Program-made: the position numbers and the translations under genes
Notes under the pieces: model-generated
Database searches by the model: none
What the model was told of the DNA's origin: nothing
Seen by the model: only the letters and a program-made list of their open reading frames with translations
Virus record (IMG/VR): IMGVR_UViG_2541047860_000002
Direction: 5' to 3' (one strand)
Source of the DNA: a virus
Lineage: Duplodnaviria > Heunggongvirae > Uroviricota > Caudoviricetes
Length of the DNA: 64,000 bases
Part shown: positions 1-9,086 of the stretch, piece after piece
Layout of the letters: every line of letters starts with the position of its first letter
Numbering within the stretch: the first letter of the stretch is position 1

Positions 1-75
1 TATCAATACTGCTGAAAAATTTATTTCTCAGCGGAACCTGAATAAAAAAGCAGCCTGATATAGTAAAACACATAC

Positions 76-108
76 AAAAAGCCCACTTAGCAAGTGGGCT
101 TTCCTTTG
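76..108 (+). terminator. Rho-independent terminator-like hairpin (GCCCACTT-agca-AGTGGGC + T-rich)
   Basis: GC stem 81-99 followed by TTTCCTTT. Confidence 0.45.
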
Positions 109-114
109 TAATTA

Positions 115-315
115 ATGAACATTAAACCTATCCGTACAGAACAAGATTATGAGGCCGCACTGCGTGCGGTCAAACCGATGTTCGATAACGAACCGGAAAT
201 GAATACTCCGGAAGGTGATTTCTTTGAGGTTATGAGTCTTCTCATTGAGGAGTACGAGAAGAAACATTACCCAATTCAGCCACCATCACCTGTTGAATCT
301 TTTAACTATCCATAA
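115..315 (+). CDS. HigA-family antitoxin-like N-terminal fragment (IKPIRTEQDYEAAL...PEGD...YEKKHYPI), HTH domain absent
   Basis: N-terminal signature typical of Xre/HigA antitoxins; ORF stops where the HTH would begin, at the edge of the AT-rich segment. Confidence 0.4.
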   Translation: MNIKPIRTEQDYEAALRAVKPMFDNEPEMNTPEGDFFEVMSLLIEEYEKKHYPIQPPSPVESFNYP

Positions 316-336
316 TAAAAGTAATCAGGATAAGCT

Positions 337-1065
337 ATGATGTCAGAAAAAGTTAAAGATAATCCGTCTATAAATGAAACAGAACTAAAATCATTTTCTG
401 AAATAATAAAAGATAAAATATTTAACAAGGTTTTTGCATATGTTGTCATTTCTTTTCTAATTTTTAACTGGAAGGATATTTTAATTATATTAAAGTCAAA
501 GGACGACATCCTATATACATTATCTATTGTTTTTGTTGGTGGTAATGTCCCGTTCTTTGATAATTGGATTGTATCCCCGTGGGTTTATCACTTTGTAATC
601 CCATTTGGTTATGGGGTATTTGCATCTGTGTTAGCTCCTATTCTCACACTGAAGATATCTAAGCTAACAAGTAAATTATACACTGAAATAAGATATTTAG
701 ATGAAGATGCTGATTATGATAAAAGAATAGAATTGCAAAGAAAGAAAACAAAGTTAAATCAAGCAACCAATGACGCTAAATATTCAAAACAAATCTTAGA
801 TGAAAATGAAAATAAACTTAATGACCTAGCTACGAAACGGCGAGAAATTTGTGGCGCGATAAAACTATTGCATTCTGATGTTGGCAGTATTATTGAACTA
901 TATAAAAATAAGGGGGTTAGCATTGAATCTCCGCAAGATTTATGTGATTTTATAGTCGCTATAAAAAGCACATCATTCTATAATGATGACAAGCATTTTA
1001 ATAAATTGGTGTCTGATATTTCCAGTTTGTTTGATAATACTGGAATTGATCTTTCAAAAAAATGA
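337..1065 (+). CDS. Hypothetical membrane protein (N-terminal TM helices + coiled-coil tail), very AT-rich
   Basis: 242-aa ORF, hydrophobic segments near N-terminus, K/E/D-rich C-terminal half; GC clearly below flanking phage DNA. Confidence 0.5.
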   Translation: MMSEKVKDNPSINETELKSFSEIIKDKIFNKVFAYVVISFLIFNWKDILIILKSKDDILYTLSIVFVGGNVPFFDNWIVSPWVYHFVIPFGYGVFASVLAPILTLKISKLTSKLYTEIRYLDEDADYDKRIELQRKKTKLNQATNDAKYSKQILDENENKLNDLATKRREICGAIKLLHSDVGSIIELYKNKGVSIESPQDLCDFIVAIKSTSFYNDDKHFNKLVSDISSLFDNTGIDLSKK

Positions 1066-1098
1066 AAGCCCAGCATAAACTACTAGGCTATGTGTGGT

Positions 1099-2292
1099 TT
1101 ATGCTTTTTTCACGTACTCTATAAACATCTTCTCAGCCTGTTCTTGTGGCGTTCCAGCCATGACAAGCGCATCAATGAACGCCTGCTTCTTCAGTGCGAA
1201 CTGATCGGCAAGGCGTTGCTGAAGTTCCTTATTTTTCTGTTTCTCACGTTGCAAGGCCGCTTCTTTTGCAGCCGCCCGTTTTTTCTGTGCGTCTGACAAC
1301 TTTCTGGCCCTGGTCAATTGGTCACGTAGCTTGTCGATCTTGCCGTTGTCCTTTGCCAGTTTTGTACTTAAAGCTGCCTGGCGCTTCTGATAGAGCCTCC
1401 ATTCGCGTTTGGCGGCTTCAACGTTCGTTTTACTGCTACGATTGCGATTAAACTCCTTCTCGTCTTCTTTTGAGAAGTGTTTGGTTGTACGGCGGCGATC
1501 GTCACCAAATGCAATTTGCGTTGCAGCCTTTTGTAGCGCACGAGCAATACTCATTTGCCAACTGGCGGACTGTAACCGCGTCATTGAGTGGATCACGTGT
1601 TTACAGGCGACGCCTTGCAGCTTCGGGTTGCGAACTTTTGGATAGGCGTATTCTTTTGGCGGTGCCAGGGCAAAGTTACCCGCAGTGGCGATGTAACGAT
1701 ACCAGTATTGATGACGACCACAGTCACAATCGAAAGACACTCGCCCGGCGCACAGTGATTTAGTGATTTTGAGAGCTGATTTATCGTCTTCTGCGATGTC
1801 ATCAACCATCTGATCCCATTCTTCAAAGCGTATCCGGACGATATGGTGCTGGTGGACGGATATATCCGATGCTTCTACGCGGATATTAATCACATTGTGG
1901 CGAAGAGATACGGGTGTAGCTCTTTTGATACCAGATCCGTCATCCACGGCGTTATTTGCACGCTTAATATCGATTGCCTGGCTGGATGCCACCAGCTGGG
2001 CGTATGTGATGCCAGCCGTCTTGCTGTCATATTTTTCGCGCGTTTTACTCCGTAGCTTTTCGAAACCTTTCAGGTCGTCTCGCGTGAAGAACGTGCCGCC
2101 TTTTTTCTTCCCTAACTTGAGAATATCTTCGGCGGATTTGTTCCTCAGTCTACCTGGCGTCAGCGTCCGGTGAGCTTGTCGGCGCTTACGGGTTTGTTCT
2201 TTCCTGATAAGCTCGAATAAACGCGTGAAGTCCTTAGAGGACAGGCCGTCAGTGATATAGCGCCCGTCCTGGTTTTTCAGGAAATCAGGCAT
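1099..2292 (-). CDS. Hypothetical protein with Cys/His cluster (FDCDCGRH...CKH) and K/R/Q-rich coiled-coil C-terminus
   Basis: 397-aa ORF; start overlaps the upstream 109-aa gene by 8 nt. Confidence 0.5.
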   Translation of the reverse strand: MPDFLKNQDGRYITDGLSSKDFTRLFELIRKEQTRKRRQAHRTLTPGRLRNKSAEDILKLGKKKGGTFFTRDDLKGFEKLRSKTREKYDSKTAGITYAQLVASSQAIDIKRANNAVDDGSGIKRATPVSLRHNVINIRVEASDISVHQHHIVRIRFEEWDQMVDDIAEDDKSALKITKSLCAGRVSFDCDCGRHQYWYRYIATAGNFALAPPKEYAYPKVRNPKLQGVACKHVIHSMTRLQSASWQMSIARALQKAATQIAFGDDRRRTTKHFSKEDEKEFNRNRSSKTNVEAAKREWRLYQKRQAALSTKLAKDNGKIDKLRDQLTRARKLSDAQKKRAAAKEAALQREKQKNKELQQRLADQFALKKQAFIDALVMAGTPQEQAEKMFIEYVKKA

Positions 2293-2614
2293 TTTCTATC
2301 TCCGGTTCCGCGCTCGCGTAATCACGGATCTTGTTCCTCAGCCATGCCACATCAGGAAGAGTTAACGTGGTCCCGGCGGGCATTTCTTCCATTTCTGACT
2401 CATGGCCCACCAGCACCCGGAATACCCAGCGCAAATCTGCATTGCCATACGCCCGGTAGGCTGCAAGGTCTGAACGATATACTTCATCAATCTTTATCGT
2501 GTACTGGAAATTATCAGAGTGATACTCCGATACCCGCTTAATCATTTCCTGGTGAAACAGCGCACGAAAAATATCGTCTTCAATGTACCTATCGTCGAGT
2601 CTGCTATAGCCCAT
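2285..2614 (-). CDS. Hypothetical protein
   Basis: 109-aa ORF translationally coupled to the 397-aa gene. Confidence 0.45.
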   Translation of the reverse strand: MGYSRLDDRYIEDDIFRALFHQEMIKRVSEYHSDNFQYTIKIDEVYRSDLAAYRAYGNADLRWVFRVLVGHESEMEEMPAGTTLTLPDVAWLRNKIRDYASAEPEIENA

Positions 2615-2807
2615 AACAAAGCCTCTCAGTCATAACCTGGGGGAAACTGTATGCAGGGTGTGAAATGCGAGAAACAGACAGGCCACCAGTTCAGGGGGAT
2701 GTGGCTCATAAATCCCCTCACTGGTGACAAGTGACTTTCATTAATCTTTATGCGGGGGCCAGCTTCATTTGCTGGCATTAGATTAAAAATTAAACGGAGT
2801 GAATGAC

Positions 2808-2942
2808 ATGGATGTTATCTTCGAATTATTAATTCTAATTGATCTGTTTATGAACGCTTCATTGACCACTCAAATACTCGCGTCAATATTTTTGTTACTC
2901 TTCTACCTGGTGTTGAGGGAGTTAACAAAGCTACTAATGTGA
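2808..2942 (+). CDS. Small hydrophobic peptide (44 aa, MDVIFELLILIDLF...), possible membrane toxin-like peptide
   Basis: ATG at 2808 preceded by ACGGAG; single predicted TM helix; below ORF-track cutoff. Confidence 0.25.
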   Translation: MDVIFELLILIDLFMNASLTTQILASIFLLLFYLVLRELTKLLM

Positions 2943-3638
2943 TCAAAGTATCACGGTATCTTCATCAACTTCTTTCCCAGCCAGTGACTTTGGCTGGGAG
3001 GTGCCTGCTTTAACTTTTTCATGCCCAATAATGGAAAGGAACGAAGCGAGTATGCCTGTTTTTTGCTCTTTCTCGACTGTACCGGTCATCTGCTCTACGT
3101 AATCCGCACTGGCAACGTTGTGGTATACGGTCGCGTAGCAACACAGGATCATCAGAATATGCTCCGGCCTGATATCCTGCCAGTTCACCCTGTAGACTTC
3201 TTCTCCGTTACCGTTGTATTCGGTATCAACGATAGAGTCGGGGATTTCGAAAGCACCTTTGTTATTTTGCGGCAGGGATAATAGTTTCTGGAGTTTTAAC
3301 TCTTTGTATCTTTCCATCCCGACGATGATTGCTGCTCTACCATCGGCATGACGGGTCTTGAGAGTCACCTGGCTTGCTCCGGTGCCAGCGGAGATCGTTG
3401 GCGTAATTTCGTCTACCAGTACCTTAAATTTGCTTTTCCGCAGGGCTGCTATAGCTGGAGGAATTTTTTGCTTTTGCTCCAATGCTGACGCGGGAAGGGG
3501 TTTTACTTCGTTAATAATGAGAGCACCGTCTTTCAGTATTGCAGTGAGCATTTGAGGCTTGCTGGTGGTCAGGCTGAATATTGCGATCTTTTCCATTGTC
3601 CTTCCTCCACGGATGACGGATACAAAAAAAGGCCGCAC
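2943..3638 (-). CDS. Hypothetical protein (probable start at the internal Met near 3596)
   Basis: 231-aa ORF. Confidence 0.45.
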   Translation of the reverse strand: MRPFFVSVIRGGRTMEKIAIFSLTTSKPQMLTAILKDGALIINEVKPLPASALEQKQKIPPAIAALRKSKFKVLVDEITPTISAGTGASQVTLKTRHADGRAAIIVGMERYKELKLQKLLSLPQNNKGAFEIPDSIVDTEYNGNGEEVYRVNWQDIRPEHILMILCCYATVYHNVASADYVEQMTGTVEKEQKTGILASFLSIIGHEKVKAGTSQPKSLAGKEVDEDTVIL

Positions 3639-3863
3639 ATGGCGGCCTGCTTTGGCGTTATGACTCCCTACCGCGCTTCGGCTGAAAGTTAATCGTCAAA
3701 AGAACCTTCAACGGGAGCCGTTAGCGCGATGGATTATGTGCAGTTTGTGATTTCCAAAATAGTGTCAACCACTTTTTGTGGATTTTATTTTTTGACAGAA
3801 ATTTGGCCTAAATCATGTTGATTTGGCTGATTATTTTTATAACATAAAAGTCATTTTGATTGC

Positions 3864-4763
3864 ATGAAGGACGGTGCAGTGAAGTTAAGGGTTTTAGGGA
3901 CCGCGCTCGCGGCTAAGATGGTAAGGTATGGAGTTAATGAAATGTTTTTTATAAAAAATGGAAAAAGATTTTCCTCAACAATACTAGCTACTGTTGTTGC
4001 TCTTTTTGTCCCCACACTCACCTTTGCTTATGATTTTAGCAAAATTGACTGCAATTCCCCTAAAACTAGGCAGATGTTAATCGATGATTATAATGAACTG
4101 CTGAAGGACGATCAGGAAGCAATTTCTGTAATCGATGCTTATAATCAGATCAATGAGATAAGAGAAAAAAATAAGCTCCAATGCCTGGGAACGTATGAAT
4201 TCTCAGATGGAAGTGCGCTTAGGGTTAGATATAAGTTATATTTAAATAGCCTCGGCACCCCCATATATGAATTTGCTCCAGTTGAGGAGTTAACGCAAGA
4301 TGACGTAAGCGCATCTATCCAAAATATCCCTGCAACCACAGCGAGTAAGGCTGGAGGGAATGAAGAAACGTACTCCTGTAAAGTGGCTGTAACCTACAAT
4401 GGAAAGCGCTCTAACTATATGGGGGATACTGGAGTCTGGGATCGTGTGATTACTGACTATGGCACTTATTTCTCATGGGATTTGCCGCGCGGAAATCGAG
4501 GCAATAGTACAGGCCAGGATGCTTTTAGTGGCATGGACGAATCAAAGCCAGCATTAGAAAATAAGCTGGTGAGAAAGGAAGTCGAAAAAGATGGTAGCGT
4601 GGTTGATGAATTTAGGACTGATGTAAGTTATGGGGAAAAACAACCAGTTCATAAGTTTGTATATGCTCGTAGAATAAAACCTACAGGCATGAGAGAGTAT
4701 TATGTTACGGATTTAACAGACAAGCGGGCGTTTATGTTTCTGAATTGTCAGAGAGATTCGTGA
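3864..4763 (+). CDS. Hypothetical secreted/periplasmic protein (signal-peptide-like FSSTILATVVALFVPTLTFA; probable start ATG 3939)
   Basis: N-terminal hydrophobic h-region followed by A-Y; AT-rich. Confidence 0.5.
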   Translation: MKDGAVKLRVLGTALAAKMVRYGVNEMFFIKNGKRFSSTILATVVALFVPTLTFAYDFSKIDCNSPKTRQMLIDDYNELLKDDQEAISVIDAYNQINEIREKNKLQCLGTYEFSDGSALRVRYKLYLNSLGTPIYEFAPVEELTQDDVSASIQNIPATTASKAGGNEETYSCKVAVTYNGKRSNYMGDTGVWDRVITDYGTYFSWDLPRGNRGNSTGQDAFSGMDESKPALENKLVRKEVEKDGSVVDEFRTDVSYGEKQPVHKFVYARRIKPTGMREYYVTDLTDKRAFMFLNCQRDS

Positions 4764-4803
4764 TTGACATAGCAGGCTTACTATTAAGCCTGCTTTTTGG
4801 CTA

Positions 4804-5163
4804 TTACTCGGTAATAGTTTTGCAGTTGTTTTGATTTAATGACAATCCTAGCTTGCTAGCAGCCAACTCATTTTCTGTGTGAGAACCAGCAAAAATGAAG
4901 CCTTGTTTTATCTTATTTACGGTGAAATATTTATTATACATGAACGCCCAGATAAATGAGGCAATCCACGGGCCAATTCCGGCTGTGAGGAATGCCAGTA
5001 TCAGCATCACTACGAATACCCCAATAAAAGTTATAAAGTCTTTCCTGAACAAAGCTGGAAAAGCACCAAACAAGAATGTAGTCCAGGAAAAACCATAAAA
5101 ACCGGTGATTGATTCGCCAGTTTGAGGGTTTTCAAGTTTAATTTTAGTAGCCACGATTATCAT
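4804..5163 (-). CDS. Hypothetical small inner-membrane protein
   Basis: 119-aa ORF with 2-3 hydrophobic helices. Confidence 0.45.
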   Translation of the reverse strand: MIIVATKIKLENPQTGESITGFYGFSWTTFLFGAFPALFRKDFITFIGVFVVMLILAFLTAGIGPWIASFIWAFMYNKYFTVNKIKQGFIFAGSHTENELAASKLGLSLNQNNCKTITE

Positions 5164-5299
5164 CCTTTTACATAAAAAACATATAGTTATAGTGCTGTGT
5201 GAGATTCTAATGTTACTAATTTACACTTTGTAATGCAATTAAATAACTTTAGGCAGTGAAAGTAACTATTCGTGGCAGACTATCGTTAAGACCTTTCAA

Positions 5300-5584
5300 T
5301 TATGGTTGCTGTAAGTGGAGGGGAACAGCCTGTTCTATCATCTCGCGTATCAAGCCAACTTCAAGTAGTTCCTCGGATTCCCAGTATCTGTTTGTCACCA
5401 GATCCAGGCTGGCTATGACCTTGTGCCGGTCATTCGGCATAGCCAATTTTTCTGCTATAACCATCAGTGAAAACTCTTCATCCAGTAGAATTTGATACCA
5501 GTTTTTTGATAGTTCCACTTCCCTTATGAGACTGAAACGTCGCTGGATTGTGGCAGCAGAGTAAGTGAAATCTATTTTCTTCAT
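5300..5584 (-). CDS. Hypothetical protein
   Basis: 94-aa ORF. Confidence 0.4.
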   Translation of the reverse strand: MKKIDFTYSAATIQRRFSLIREVELSKNWYQILLDEEFSLMVIAEKLAMPNDRHKVIASLDLVTNRYWESEELLEVGLIREMIEQAVPLHLQQP

Positions 5585-5643
5585 CGTGCGGAGAATCCGG
5601 TTATTTAGTAGTTAAAGCCCCGGACAGGCCGGGGCAACAGTAA

Positions 5644-6585
5644 TTAACTAACAATCCAGTCCGTAGCAACAACATCCTCTGGAGCTAAATCAATCGCATG
5701 GATTTTCCCATCCCGGATAGTGCGCCAGTGCTTTCGTGATCCACCTTCGGGCCATACCCATACACCTTCAGGCCAAGATGCTCGACGGCATACGATTGCA
5801 TACCCTGTTTTAATCCTCTCTCTGGCGGTATGCAACGACAGGTTTGCCTTTGGACTTTCAGGCACAGGATGGTGGATTGCCTGAAACATCCCCATCTTTG
5901 GATGATACCAGCGTTTATTGCGTGGTTCTGCCTCCGACATCACCTGCTTAAAGGCTTTCCGGAAGGGGGCCAGAGCCACAATGGAGCGTCGCGCAAGCAA
6001 GCCATCGGGGGTCAAAAACTCATGTGTATCGGTGGGAATCCGGTAAGCGTTAACCAGGTTGCGGCATTTGGCTTCAGTCAGGCCGCATTTCGCCGCCAGC
6101 TGGCGGTAGCCAATGTAACCTTCCGGCATATTGCCTTTCTTGATTTGCTCGAGTGTTTCAGCAACCATCGATACTTGTGCTGATACCTCGGCTACCTGGG
6201 CATTTACGGCGTTGATCCGGCGTTCATGCTCAAGATGCATTTGCGCCATTTCAGCCAGGATTTCGGCTTTTGATTTTAACTGTACCCGGGCATTCTCCAG
6301 TTCGCGCCAGCGGTCCACTAGCCGGGCGGTAAATTCGGGAGAGAGCTGCGCGACGACAACAATGCTGTCTCGTTTTCCTTGCTCGCCTTCGAAGACATAG
6401 ACCGGATCTTTGACAACCTTCCCTAAGTTATTGATTCTTTCGACGAACTCATTTTGAGTTTCTCGGATGACACCGCTAGCCATCATATTGCGAATGGTAC
6501 GTAAAACATTGCCGTGACGACTACCAACTAACTCTGCAATATCTAGGCTACTCATTGTCGCTTTTTGAGAGATGGACAGATTCAT
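5644..6585 (-). CDS. Rha-family phage regulatory protein (antirepressor-like) fused to a C-terminal DUF2829-like module
   Basis: N-terminal Rha-like region (VFEGEQGKRDSIVVVAQLSPEF...); near-identical paralog at 43223-43930; C-terminal CRRASW...ATDWIVS. Confidence 0.7.
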   Translation of the reverse strand: MNLSISQKATMSSLDIAELVGSRHGNVLRTIRNMMASGVIRETQNEFVERINNLGKVVKDPVYVFEGEQGKRDSIVVVAQLSPEFTARLVDRWRELENARVQLKSKAEILAEMAQMHLEHERRINAVNAQVAEVSAQVSMVAETLEQIKKGNMPEGYIGYRQLAAKCGLTEAKCRNLVNAYRIPTDTHEFLTPDGLLARRSIVALAPFRKAFKQVMSEAEPRNKRWYHPKMGMFQAIHHPVPESPKANLSLHTARERIKTGYAIVCRRASWPEGVWVWPEGGSRKHWRTIRDGKIHAIDLAPEDVVATDWIVS

Positions 6586-6800
6586 CAGTGCACCTCCACG
6601 CAGTTCATCGGCAGATTCCAGTAATTGAGGATCTCCATCGCATCAAGAGTGAAGCGAGCAGCAAAAATGCAGGGTTCTTCGGGAAGGTATGAGCGCGCCT
6701 CTGATTCGGTAGCAGCCATGACGCAGATATACAGGTGCTTTTGGCAGGAATAGAAACGCCAGATAAATTCAGAATGAGTTGGGGTAGGGATAGTAGCCAT
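6585..6800 (-). CDS. Small protein preceding the Rha gene (Icd position of an immI-like module); paralog at 43930-44154
   Basis: 71-aa ORF; shared EFIWRF(Y/H)S.QKH core with the 74-aa paralog; stop overlaps Rha start. Confidence 0.45.
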   Translation of the reverse strand: MATIPTPTHSEFIWRFYSCQKHLYICVMAATESEARSYLPEEPCIFAARFTLDAMEILNYWNLPMNCVEVH

Positions 6801-6862
6801 ATTGGCAGCCTCCTTTTGCTAATTTAAGGAGCTACCGCGTGAGGTCTCAATCTCAATGGCGG

Positions 6863-6938
6863 TAGCACTGGCTGGGTTGAGACTACCGGCGCAAAAGGGA
6901 ACCGGCCTGCCTTTCGGCAGCCCAGCCAGCACTACCAT
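6863..6938 (-). ncRNA. Candidate structured RNA element (16-bp stem, ~44-nt loop) upstream of the Rha module
   Basis: Arms 6863-6878 and 6923-6938 pair perfectly (two G-U) only when the minus strand is transcribed; plus strand gives two C-A mismatches. Confidence 0.3.
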
Positions 6939-6983
6939 TGATCTTGGAGCTATACGCTACGTATGGCTGTGCGATGGCATGAC

Positions 6984-7007
6984 ACAAAAAAAGACGCTTT
7001 CGGCGTC
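6984..7007 (-). terminator. Rho-independent terminator (GACGC-cgaaa-GCGTC + U7) on minus strand
   Basis: Hairpin 6993-7007 followed on the minus strand by a T run (6984-6992). Confidence 0.5.
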
Positions 7008-7112
7008 TGTGTCGCCTTTTGCATTATCCGGGGTCTCAATCCCGGCACCCGTTTTTCTAAGGTGCCGTAGAAATATACCCCACGATAATGCCAGGGCGCA
7101 ACAGTCAGTATT

Positions 7113-8463: not shown

Positions 8464-9086
8464 TGGTGAAACGTGTTTTGAAAATTTACATCGCGGGGCC
8501 GATGACTGGTTATCCAGATTACAACCGTGCGGCGTTTAATGCGAAAGCGAGCGAGTTGATGGCTGAAGGGCATATCGTTCTGAATCCAGCGGTGTTACCT
8601 GGTGGCCTTTGCCAGAGTGAATACATGGATATTTGCCTGGCAATGGTGCGTTCTGCTGATGCGATCTATTTGCTCAATCAATGGGAAGAATCGGTTGGTG
8701 CTCGTGCAGAGCACGCGTTGGCTGAAAAGCTTGGGCTGACTGTAATTTATGAGTCACCAACCAACATTGAATGCCAGGTTGCTACGCATATTTACCGGGA
8801 ACTGGTCAATGCGTTACGTGATGTTGCTATTGAATGTCACGGCACGGATCAGCTTCGCGCTCGCTTAAGCCAAACCCTTTCCAGTTACCTGTCTTTGGCT
8901 GAAGGATACAACCTCCGACAGCGAAGAATGGTCAGATTAATCACGCGGTTATCTCAATCCCTGGCAAATGCTGAACCAACTAATCCGCTACCTAATGACG
9001 CAATGAATTATCTGAAGTCATGCGGCGTTGTTTCTGAAGATGCAGTTCGTTTTGTGGAGTTTATGTCTCAGAGGATGTCGGCGTGA
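8463..9086 (+). CDS. DUF4406-like protein (nucleoside 2-deoxyribosyltransferase-like fold) with a C-terminal YRELVN...GT.QLR module
   Basis: KIYIAGPMTG...N..AF...YLLNQWEESVGARAE motif; C-terminal ~30 aa shared with ORF 14824-15990. Confidence 0.5.
   Translation: MVKRVLKIYIAGPMTGYPDYNRAAFNAKASELMAEGHIVLNPAVLPGGLCQSEYMDICLAMVRSADAIYLLNQWEESVGARAEHALAEKLGLTVIYESPTNIECQVATHIYRELVNALRDVAIECHGTDQLRARLSQTLSSYLSLAEGYNLRQRRMVRLITRLSQSLANAEPTNPLPNDAMNYLKSCGVVSEDAVRFVEFMSQRMSA

Follow-up and report, generated by a model that had tools for sequence, protein, structure and literature searches.

Which genes at the start of this stretch of DNA are cargo, do they form one block, and what could the most divergent of them do for the element that carries it? 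The stretch (64,000 nucleotides (nt), termed the window here) belongs to IMG/VR virus record IMGVR_UViG_2541047860_000002 of the Caudoviricetes, and an initial annotation read its positions 1-5600 as one AT-rich cargo block at the left, variable end of a phage genome. Judged by identity and gene order, the window is a D6-like phage-plasmid of the P1 family, and positions 1-5600 are two accessory slots set among core genes, an anatomy about which there is little doubt. The element itself, its toxin-antitoxin pair and the SimB-like and pmgF-like genes are ordinary and largely already annotated in GenBank. The unusual item, as far as sequence comparison tells, is the gene at 337-1065, termed X here, which represents an uncharacterised family with an unusually strong allele-diversity signature at a prophage hotspot. 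X is plausibly a good candidate for a phage-exclusion gene, with its reading as exclusion or abortive-infection protein being putative.

Allele diversity of gene X in a fixed slot

Positions 1-6000 of the window are 94.9% identical to Escherichia phage D6, a plasmid prophage of the P1 family and the source of the gene names used for the window, and many non-mobilizable plasmids of ~90-95 kb from E. coli and Salmonella are 99.9% identical to the same interval. On plasmid CP092511.1, which is identical to the window, the rest of higA1, relE and the tail/baseplate genes 7, 24, 6 and 5 are found to the left of position 1. The left edge of the window thus falls at an arbitrary point within higA1, in a circular replicon, and is no genome end. 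In P1 the genes 26, 25, 7, 24, 6 and 5 are contiguous with a gap of 3 nt between 25 and 7, and in D6-like elements ~2.1 kb of cargo are found between the tail genes 7 and 25 on the strand opposite to the tail operon. By this comparison of gene order, the first slot (slot 1) is an insertion of ~2.1 kb between genes 7 and 25. Within it X (337-1065, plus strand) encodes a protein of 242 amino acids. Its GC content is 0.294 (z = -5.6; z-scores were calculated against same-length stretches of 5601-64000 with a background GC of 0.488), no same-length stretch in 5601-64000 is as low, and the X alleles among the relatives are all AT-rich (GC 0.28-0.35).

The relatives compared were 22 IMG/VR contigs of D6-like elements, 17 of them E. 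coli-type with a backbone close to that of the window. For these 17, the identity to the window proteins is 93-100% in gp7, the toxin-antitoxin proteins, gp25, gp26 and Mat. The identity of X to the window's protein takes the values 100, 96, 58, 47, 44, 42, 38, 37 or 36% across the 22 contigs, i.e., 36-58% outside its own allele class, and the X homolog of D6, orf73, is 61% identical to the window allele at the amino acid level. At the nucleotide level, the identity is ~97-100% in the flanks and 54-83% across X plus a few dozen bases on each side; in the window the swapped segment, in which the identity to D6 and to the other allele classes is low, extends from 292 to 1250. Two Enterobacter-type elements are 97% identical except for X (47% amino acid identity), with the breakpoints at the higA stop and at the X stop. 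At least eight old X allele classes were counted, which are separated by dS of 0.5-1.2 with dN/dS of 0.2-0.3, a ratio that marks X as a real protein gene under constraint. From these comparisons, the X alleles are best described as old lineages that were shuffled by recombination, with no recent hypermutation in place, and X is swapped as a cassette via recombination in the conserved flanks. Within X the mean pairwise identity is highest in the membrane part (0.5-0.69) and lowest in the helix at residues 122-195 (0.18-0.30). In the literature covered, which did not include the D6 genome paper, no description of X allele diversity was found; the D6 record calls orf73 hypothetical.

Protein X, its homologs and their neighbourhoods

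The five ORFs (open reading frames) named in the initial annotation were all found at the coordinates given there. It had described ORF 337-1065 as a membrane protein with a coiled coil, which agrees with two hydrophobic segments at residues 34-52 and 87-105 in the hydropathy profile and with a predicted long helix. The latter was obtained from a second structure model, built from 12 sequences with a pLDDT of 61, that consists of one long helix (residues 81-192) followed by a small helical C-domain (199-233); the confident part of this model comprises residues ~130-230 only, and pLDDT is below 50 at residues 1-77. A first model from 3 sequences had a pLDDT of 44 and was unusable.

The remote-homology and structure comparisons that had been proposed for the low-GC ORFs returned relatives of SimB and PmgF for two genes of the second slot and, for X, no match in the PDB or to a known family. 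In Pfam nothing was found for X at E <= 0.1 besides a spurious match to eIF3_N, the best among the PADLOC 2.0 models was LeoC with E = 0.03, the X profile gave coiled-coil noise only against the PDB sequences, and a Foldseek comparison of the model with the PDB gave nothing (best E = 6). In PHROG the only match was to a family of 'unknown function'. A word-indexed search of 5.8 billion proteins recovered only two X allele types, both from E. coli, while an exhaustive HMMER search of 1.84 billion representatives resulted in 40 clusters at E <= 1e-3. A profile search of genome contigs with a narrower X alignment returned no relatives.

At every phage-plasmid locus examined, X is preceded by a HigA-type gene. 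The higB-higA-X cassette of contig L038 is 96% identical to that of Klebsiella IncFIB/IncHI1B plasmids, and the shared stretch takes in ~190 nt upstream and ~50 nt of the start of gene 7. The presence of the gene 7 start suggests a transfer from phage-plasmid to plasmid, as read from this alignment. In the non-phage Klebsiella plasmids L009 (2942-5732), L017 and L018, X is split by IS903B. The distant X homologs (21-35% identity) are stand-alone genes in chromosomal mobile islands. One of these is located between a 1,589-amino-acid SACS/Upf1-type helicase and a Ser/Thr kinase with an integrase adjoining, another has an AAA_13 protein nearby, another adjoins Ogr/Delta genes of P2/P4-type elements together with an AAA_15/21 and DUF4435 pair, and another is adjoined by a Peptidase_S24 gene. 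These neighbourhoods, a handful of loci only, resemble defence islands.

The truncated higA2 and the history of slot 1

The gene in front of X (115-315, plus strand, 66 amino acids), higA2, had been taken for the N-terminus of a HigA-type antitoxin that stops before its helix-turn-helix (HTH) right at the AT-rich boundary, and the comparison with D6 bears this out. The ORF is identical to the 119-amino-acid D6 orf72 in 58 of 65 positions, over the first ~60 residues, and orf72 aligns with residues 6-112 to the E. coli K-12 HigA structures 5IFG and 5YCL (E = 8e-8), with its HTH at about residues 60-117. The DNA of window and D6 is ~99% identical up to nt ~292-300, with the break at about nt 297; the identity then collapses at the start of the AT-rich stretch, and past this break the ORF holds five unrelated codons and a stop. 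It has the N-terminal domain homologous to K-12-type HigA and lacks the Xre-type HTH, its matches to PD-Lambda-2_B and phrog_1373 cover no more than positions 1-65 and 1-63, respectively, and RefSeq lists it as a pseudogene ('incomplete; missing C-terminus'). A remnant of the Xre-peptidase PD-lambda-2B was considered as origin of higA2 and rejected, as relatives encode the 119-amino-acid form right behind HigB and its match to E. coli HigA spans the full length.

The cognate HigB is not found directly upstream of the ORF 115-315. Instead, relE and higA1 are encoded there, the 3' end of higA1 covering 1-58 (plus strand) and the pair beginning upstream of the window, as seen in CP092511.1; the higA1 product is a HigA-family antitoxin that matches TIGR02607 HigA with E = 8e-30. 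The gene order relE-higA1-higA2-X is found in D6 and many other contigs, the order higB-higA2-X in contigs L033, L035, L036, L039 and L040, and a very diverged higB-higA-X with a HigA of 139 amino acids in an Enterobacter plasmid and in L038. In a Shigella plasmid slot 1 contains higB and, 3 nt later, a 119-amino-acid HigA that is 97% identical to D6 orf72, with no X. As the window RelE has no similarity to the HigB preceding HigA2 in the Shigella plasmid, HigA2 of the D6 and window lineages is an orphan antitoxin, its toxin having given way to another pair. Across the 22 contigs the truncated higA2 accompanies only the window-type X allele, so that the truncation is a derived by-product of an X allele swap with its left endpoint inside higA2. 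Among 5,426 complete E. coli genomes, no fewer than 51 have the combination of truncated higA2 and window-type X, always on plasmids; window 1-1300 has matches of >=95% identity in ~71 plasmid records, a number for which the junction was not checked record by record.

The history of slot 1 starts from a higB-higA2 toxin-antitoxin pair with X behind it. The unrelated relE/higA1 then replaced higB in the lineages of D6 and the window and left higA2 orphaned, and in the window lineage recombination introduced another X allele with the left endpoint in higA2, cutting off the HTH. The slot genes decay in some lineages: X is frameshifted or split in L034 (3811-4634) and L039 (4977-5680), and higA2 in L037 (4558-4915).

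Proposed function of X and alternative explanations

From the sequence data, X is tentatively viewed as a possible prophage-encoded exclusion or abortive-infection protein. The two membrane segments, as a conserved hairpin, would form the effector, and the variable coiled coil together with the C-domain would set the specificity in the cytoplasm by recognising a component of the incoming phage. This cytoplasmic orientation is inferred from the lysine-rich flanks of both segments only. Different alleles would confer different specificities versus phages or related phage-plasmids, and selection would keep many of them. In screens with known models (DefenseFinder) conducted by others, a complete defence system was reported for one D6-like element only. 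As D6-like elements are defence-poor in such known-model screens, their cargo slots are obvious places for unrecognised defence systems. That X would found a new family of single-protein, membrane-anchored determinants against phages or phage-plasmids, with a swappable coiled coil and alleles resembling exclusion groups, maybe wired to HigBA as a new three-gene system, is considered rather unlikely.

Several points weigh against an exclusion or abortive-infection function. With dN/dS below 1 and no sign of positive selection, the allele diversity could originate from exchange without an arms race. The old and conserved linkage of X and higA might instead point to a function connected with the toxin-antitoxin pair. 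X has no meaningful match in Pfam, NCBIfam, PADLOC or the PDB, and lambda SieB, tried as a remote relative, was rejected as showing no homology (hhalign probability 0.13). The membrane topology follows from hydropathy and charge only, the structure model being weak in the membrane part, and the defence-gene neighbours of the homologs come from a handful of loci only. A promoter scan of the region gave sites below the chance number and none upstream of X. In the second slot, SimC, which is credited with superimmunity in P1, is absent, and P1 SimB is only a putative accessory.

The linkage to higA can be taken further, in that X could be the third part of the higBA module, a membrane effector or anchor controlled by the upstream HigA-type protein in one three-gene system. 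X follows a HigA-type gene at every phage-plasmid locus examined although the two HigA lineages are only 29% identical, the whole higB-higA-X cassette is shared together with its upstream region at 96% identity by a phage-plasmid and Klebsiella IncFIB non-phage plasmids, and the orphan higA2 is full-length with 93-100% identity in most lineages that lack higB; moreover, PD-lambda-2 is a published precedent for a defence trio of HigB-like, HigA-like and accessory protein. Nevertheless, such a system is improbable. The commonest X allele, that of the window, is found behind the HTH-less higA2, so that an intact HigA2 is dispensable for carrying X. Likewise, neither HigA nor HigB is encoded beside the distant X homologs of chromosomal islands, higB-higA2 occurs without X, the X alleles swap independently of the toxin-antitoxin genes, and a membrane protein encoded downstream of higBA in Caulobacter was reported to act independently of higBA. 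On the doubtful side, with a real chance of its own, stands the explanation that X and the slot 2 proteins are cargo for lysogenic conversion or maintenance (envelope, stress, plasmid persistence) or near-neutral passengers in recombination-prone slots. None of these proteins matches a defence family, selection on X is purifying and not positive, and some copies are frameshifted or cut by insertion sequences (IS). AT-rich, horizontally acquired genes for membrane and secreted proteins are common conversion genes, which adds to this side. Many deeply diverged alleles at one fixed site in near-identical backbones, however, fit specificity determinants better than housekeeping-like cargo, X relatives adjoin defence genes in other mobile elements, and one gene of slot 2 is homologous to a member of the P1 superimmunity operon.

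A function of X as accessory of morphogenesis or lysis, i.e., as holin-like protein or tail-assembly factor, could be read from its position between the tail genes 7 and 25 and from its two membrane segments, which class II holins also have. It is very unlikely: X runs on the strand opposite to the tail operon and is surrounded by terminator-like hairpins, it is hypervariable amid structural neighbours that are all conserved, and with its helical tail of ~140 amino acids it is much longer than typical holins. Furthermore, X is dispensable for the virion: it is absent from P1, in which 25 and 7 abut, and from a Shigella D6-like plasmid, and it is frameshifted in L034 and L039. The least probable explanation, and one that can be regarded as refuted, is the single contiguous foreign AT-rich island at a variable genome end that the initial annotation had in mind. 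The mean GC of 0.421 in 1-5600 compared to 0.488 in the rest of the window would fit an island, but the genes 25, 26 and mat inside it are conserved core genes with a backbone-like GC of 0.48-0.49, and the replicon is circular with the window edge cutting higA1. With an uneven composition and core genes of normal GC inside, 1-5600 is a mosaic and not one block, in which two slots are interleaved with tail, baseplate and maturation genes. Both slots are fixed sites between core genes with variable content and atypical composition, as is characteristic of moron hotspots. The view of the ORFs as variable accessory cargo of a temperate phage holds for X, the SimB-like gene and orf4804, which are AT-rich and absent or different in close relatives, and fails for the pmgF-like ORF; the homologs of the former three are not conserved core genes of uniform composition.

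The second slot between mat and pmgF

The first gene of slot 2 encodes a secreted two-domain protein with a SimB domain (3942-4763, plus strand). Its frame is open from 3864, and 3942 is the likely start, being both the PGAP start and the start of the PHROG match. The signal peptide proposed for ORF 3864-4763 is confirmed as a signal-peptide-like segment with a predicted cleavage between MFFIKNGKRFSSTILATVVALFVPTLTFA and YD, the hydrophobic N-terminus ending in TFA. Residues 31-116 align with the whole mature P1 SimB at 52% identity (E = 6e-27), and the overall layout is signal peptide, SimB domain, a variable linker with indels and a conserved C-domain of ~130 amino acids, with a cysteine pair in each of the two domains. 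The C-terminal part has no similarity to SimC (E = 0.88). The family is found in E. coli D6-like elements only and has no Pfam domain; a search of PDB sequences gave nothing useful. Neither the SimB-like protein nor orf4804 matches the PADLOC 2.0 models, and Pfam, NCBIfam and PADLOC scans gave nothing meaningful for these two and the pmgF-like protein. In L040 (9017-9406) the C-domain is joined to a different, non-SimB N-domain, which marks the SimB-like protein as modular. The protein would work in the periplasm against superinfection by relatives.

Slot 2 is reached by 19 contigs, of which 11 contain the SimB-like gene and 8 lack both this gene and orf4804. In L021 a 207-amino-acid lipoprotein-like protein and a 130-amino-acid protein with signal peptide are encoded instead, so the replacement cargo is likewise secreted or lipoprotein. 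The lipoprotein-like gene of L021, otherwise unrelated, starts with 17 codons (8529-8580) that nearly equal the window's in-frame extension 3864-3941 (MKDGAVKLRVLGTALAA) upstream of the SimB-like start. This common sequence puts the swap junction a short way into the cargo gene from its 5' end, so that a leader and promoter region shared by the variants stays with the slot. For one D6-like plasmid, a published analysis described the replacement of simB by five hypothetical genes and no simA or simC, and divergence around simB has been reported for D6-like plasmids. It was also published that simABC and rlfA-rlfB-pmgF are among eight variable, low-GC regions of P1-like elements and that none of simA, simB, simC and pmgF is essential for lytic growth of P1.

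The small protein orf4804 (4804-5163, minus strand, 119 amino acids, PHROG 4915) has a strongly hydrophobic core, in line with the membrane protein expected from the initial annotation. Its homologs are found with 54-58% identity in 121Q-type jumbo coliphages and, weaker, in Lactobacillus phages. Some jumbo-phage records name them HrgC or HqrC, the Lactobacillus phages are virulent, and the spread is unusually wide for 119 amino acids. The pmgF-like gene (5300-5584, minus strand, 94 amino acids) is semi-conserved and present in 13 of the 19 contigs that reach slot 2. It matches P1 PmgF with 42% identity over residues 3-73 (E = 7e-6) and phrog_7349 and is located directly after the Rha antirepressor, icd and C4 RNA, a position that corresponds to the P1 region with the immI and lytic-replication genes, which places it in the PmgF family. 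Of the low GC proposed for four ORFs, that of X stands, as does that of the SimB-like ORF (GC 0.40) and of orf4804 (GC 0.38), each with z = -2.6, and the pmgF-like ORF is close to the background (GC 0.435, z = -1.2). Similarly, a recognisable phage function is missing by family scans for X and orf4804, and the other two have the named P1 relatives SimB and PmgF.

Core genes and further features of the region

Between the slots the core backbone is encoded on the minus strand by gene 25 (tail protein, 1099-2292), gene 26 (baseplate protein, 2285-2614) and mat (maturation control protein, 2943-3638, with a PGAP start corresponding to 3596). The last ~60 residues of gp25 do not align to P1 gp25, the alignment covering residues 1-334 only, and the 3' ~100-200 nt of gene 25 (window 1099-1300) are inside the segment that varies with the X allele. 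The gap between gene 26 and mat (window 2615-2942, GC 0.41) is an apparent third variable spot. An extra gene with 30% identity to HigA1 is found there in L028 (7300-8300) and L037 (8040-9170), L039 (7260-8930) has ~1.3 kb of additional DNA, and the window has a small hydrophobic ORF of 47 amino acids (2799-2942) that overlaps D6 orf77.

To the right of slot 2 an immI-like operon (5644-6942, minus strand) consists of a C4 antisense RNA (6855-6942), icd (6585-6800) and a Rha-type antirepressor (5644-6585). Rfam matches upstream of icd on the minus strand are the C4 RNA at 6855-6942 (76 bits) and an isrK-like RNA at 6987-7065 (59 bits), and the operon marked by these RNAs runs toward the pmgF-like gene and orf4804. 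No site of the P1 C1-operator consensus was found in 1-5700.

Terminator-like sites are frequent in the region, with 18 observed and 4.9 expected from shuffles, and terminator-like hairpins bracket the cargo genes at 76-104, 1067-1089, 3630-3648 and 4771-4794. The hairpin at 76-104 (GCCCACTTAGCAAGTGGGC, with T-runs) lies between higA1 and the higA2 remnant and is readable on both strands, the one at 1067-1089 (minus strand) comes immediately past the gene 25 stop, where the convergent X and gene 25 leave a short gap, and the one at 4771-4794 (plus strand) separates the convergent SimB-like gene and orf4804. With one such hairpin behind gene 25 and another, on the minus strand, at 76-104, the genes 7-24-6-5 would need their own promoter in D6-like elements, unlike in P1 with its contiguous genes.

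Significance

D6-like phage-plasmids occur widely across E. coli, Shigella and Salmonella. Signatures of this kind, with one fixed slot in which an uncharacterised membrane protein exists as many deeply diverged alleles, have led to new exclusion and defence genes in prophages and satellites elsewhere. Should X be an exclusion or defence gene, a new single-gene family would be added, its alleles would help to account for the competition among related phage-plasmids, and a natural allele series would be available to map how specificity is encoded. In addition, slot 1 is a clean case of cargo exchange between phage-plasmids and ordinary plasmids (Klebsiella IncFIB/IncHI1B).

Comparison with known systems

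The P1 sim operon (simA-simB-simC) has the SimB domain and the signal peptide in common with the window ORF 3942-4763, and both are located in a variable low-GC region near immI (c4-icd-ant). Unlike P1, the window has no simA or simC, its SimB-like protein contains an extra C-domain of ~130 amino acids unrelated to SimC that is preceded by a variable linker, and the gene is set apart from immI by pmgF and orf4804.

SieB of lambda and P22 is a prophage gene that is dispensable for lytic growth. Its build of an N-terminal hydrophobic pair and a soluble tail is comparable to that of X, which is a lead for a similar way of working only, as X has no sequence or profile similarity to SieB and differs in its long coiled-coil-like helix and its many allele classes.

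The full-length HigA2 matches positions 1-119 of the 402 of PD-Lambda-2_B (E = 4e-43), and as in PD-lambda-2 a toxin gene is found upstream and a third gene downstream. PD-lambda-2 B was described as a fusion of Xre and peptidase and the third component as related to a P4 phage antitoxin. In contrast, HigA2 has no peptidase domain even in the full-length D6 protein, X is a membrane protein without a match to the model of the third PD-lambda-2 component, and the upstream toxins have no match to PD-Lambda-2_A. With E. coli K-12 HigBA (5IFG, 5YCL), HigA2 shares the N-terminal helical domain and the C-terminal HTH, and it follows HigB in relatives; the window form lacks the HTH half, and an unrelated RelE/HigA pair has taken the place of the cognate HigB.

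Also among the closest known systems are phage D6 (MF356679) and the D6-like plasmid prophages; in D6, orf70-orf73 and orf79-orf81 show the same element type, gene order and both slots. D6 orf72 is the full-length counterpart of the ORF 115-315, and the window differs from D6 in its other X allele (61% amino acid identity) and in a higA2 that is cut at codon ~60.

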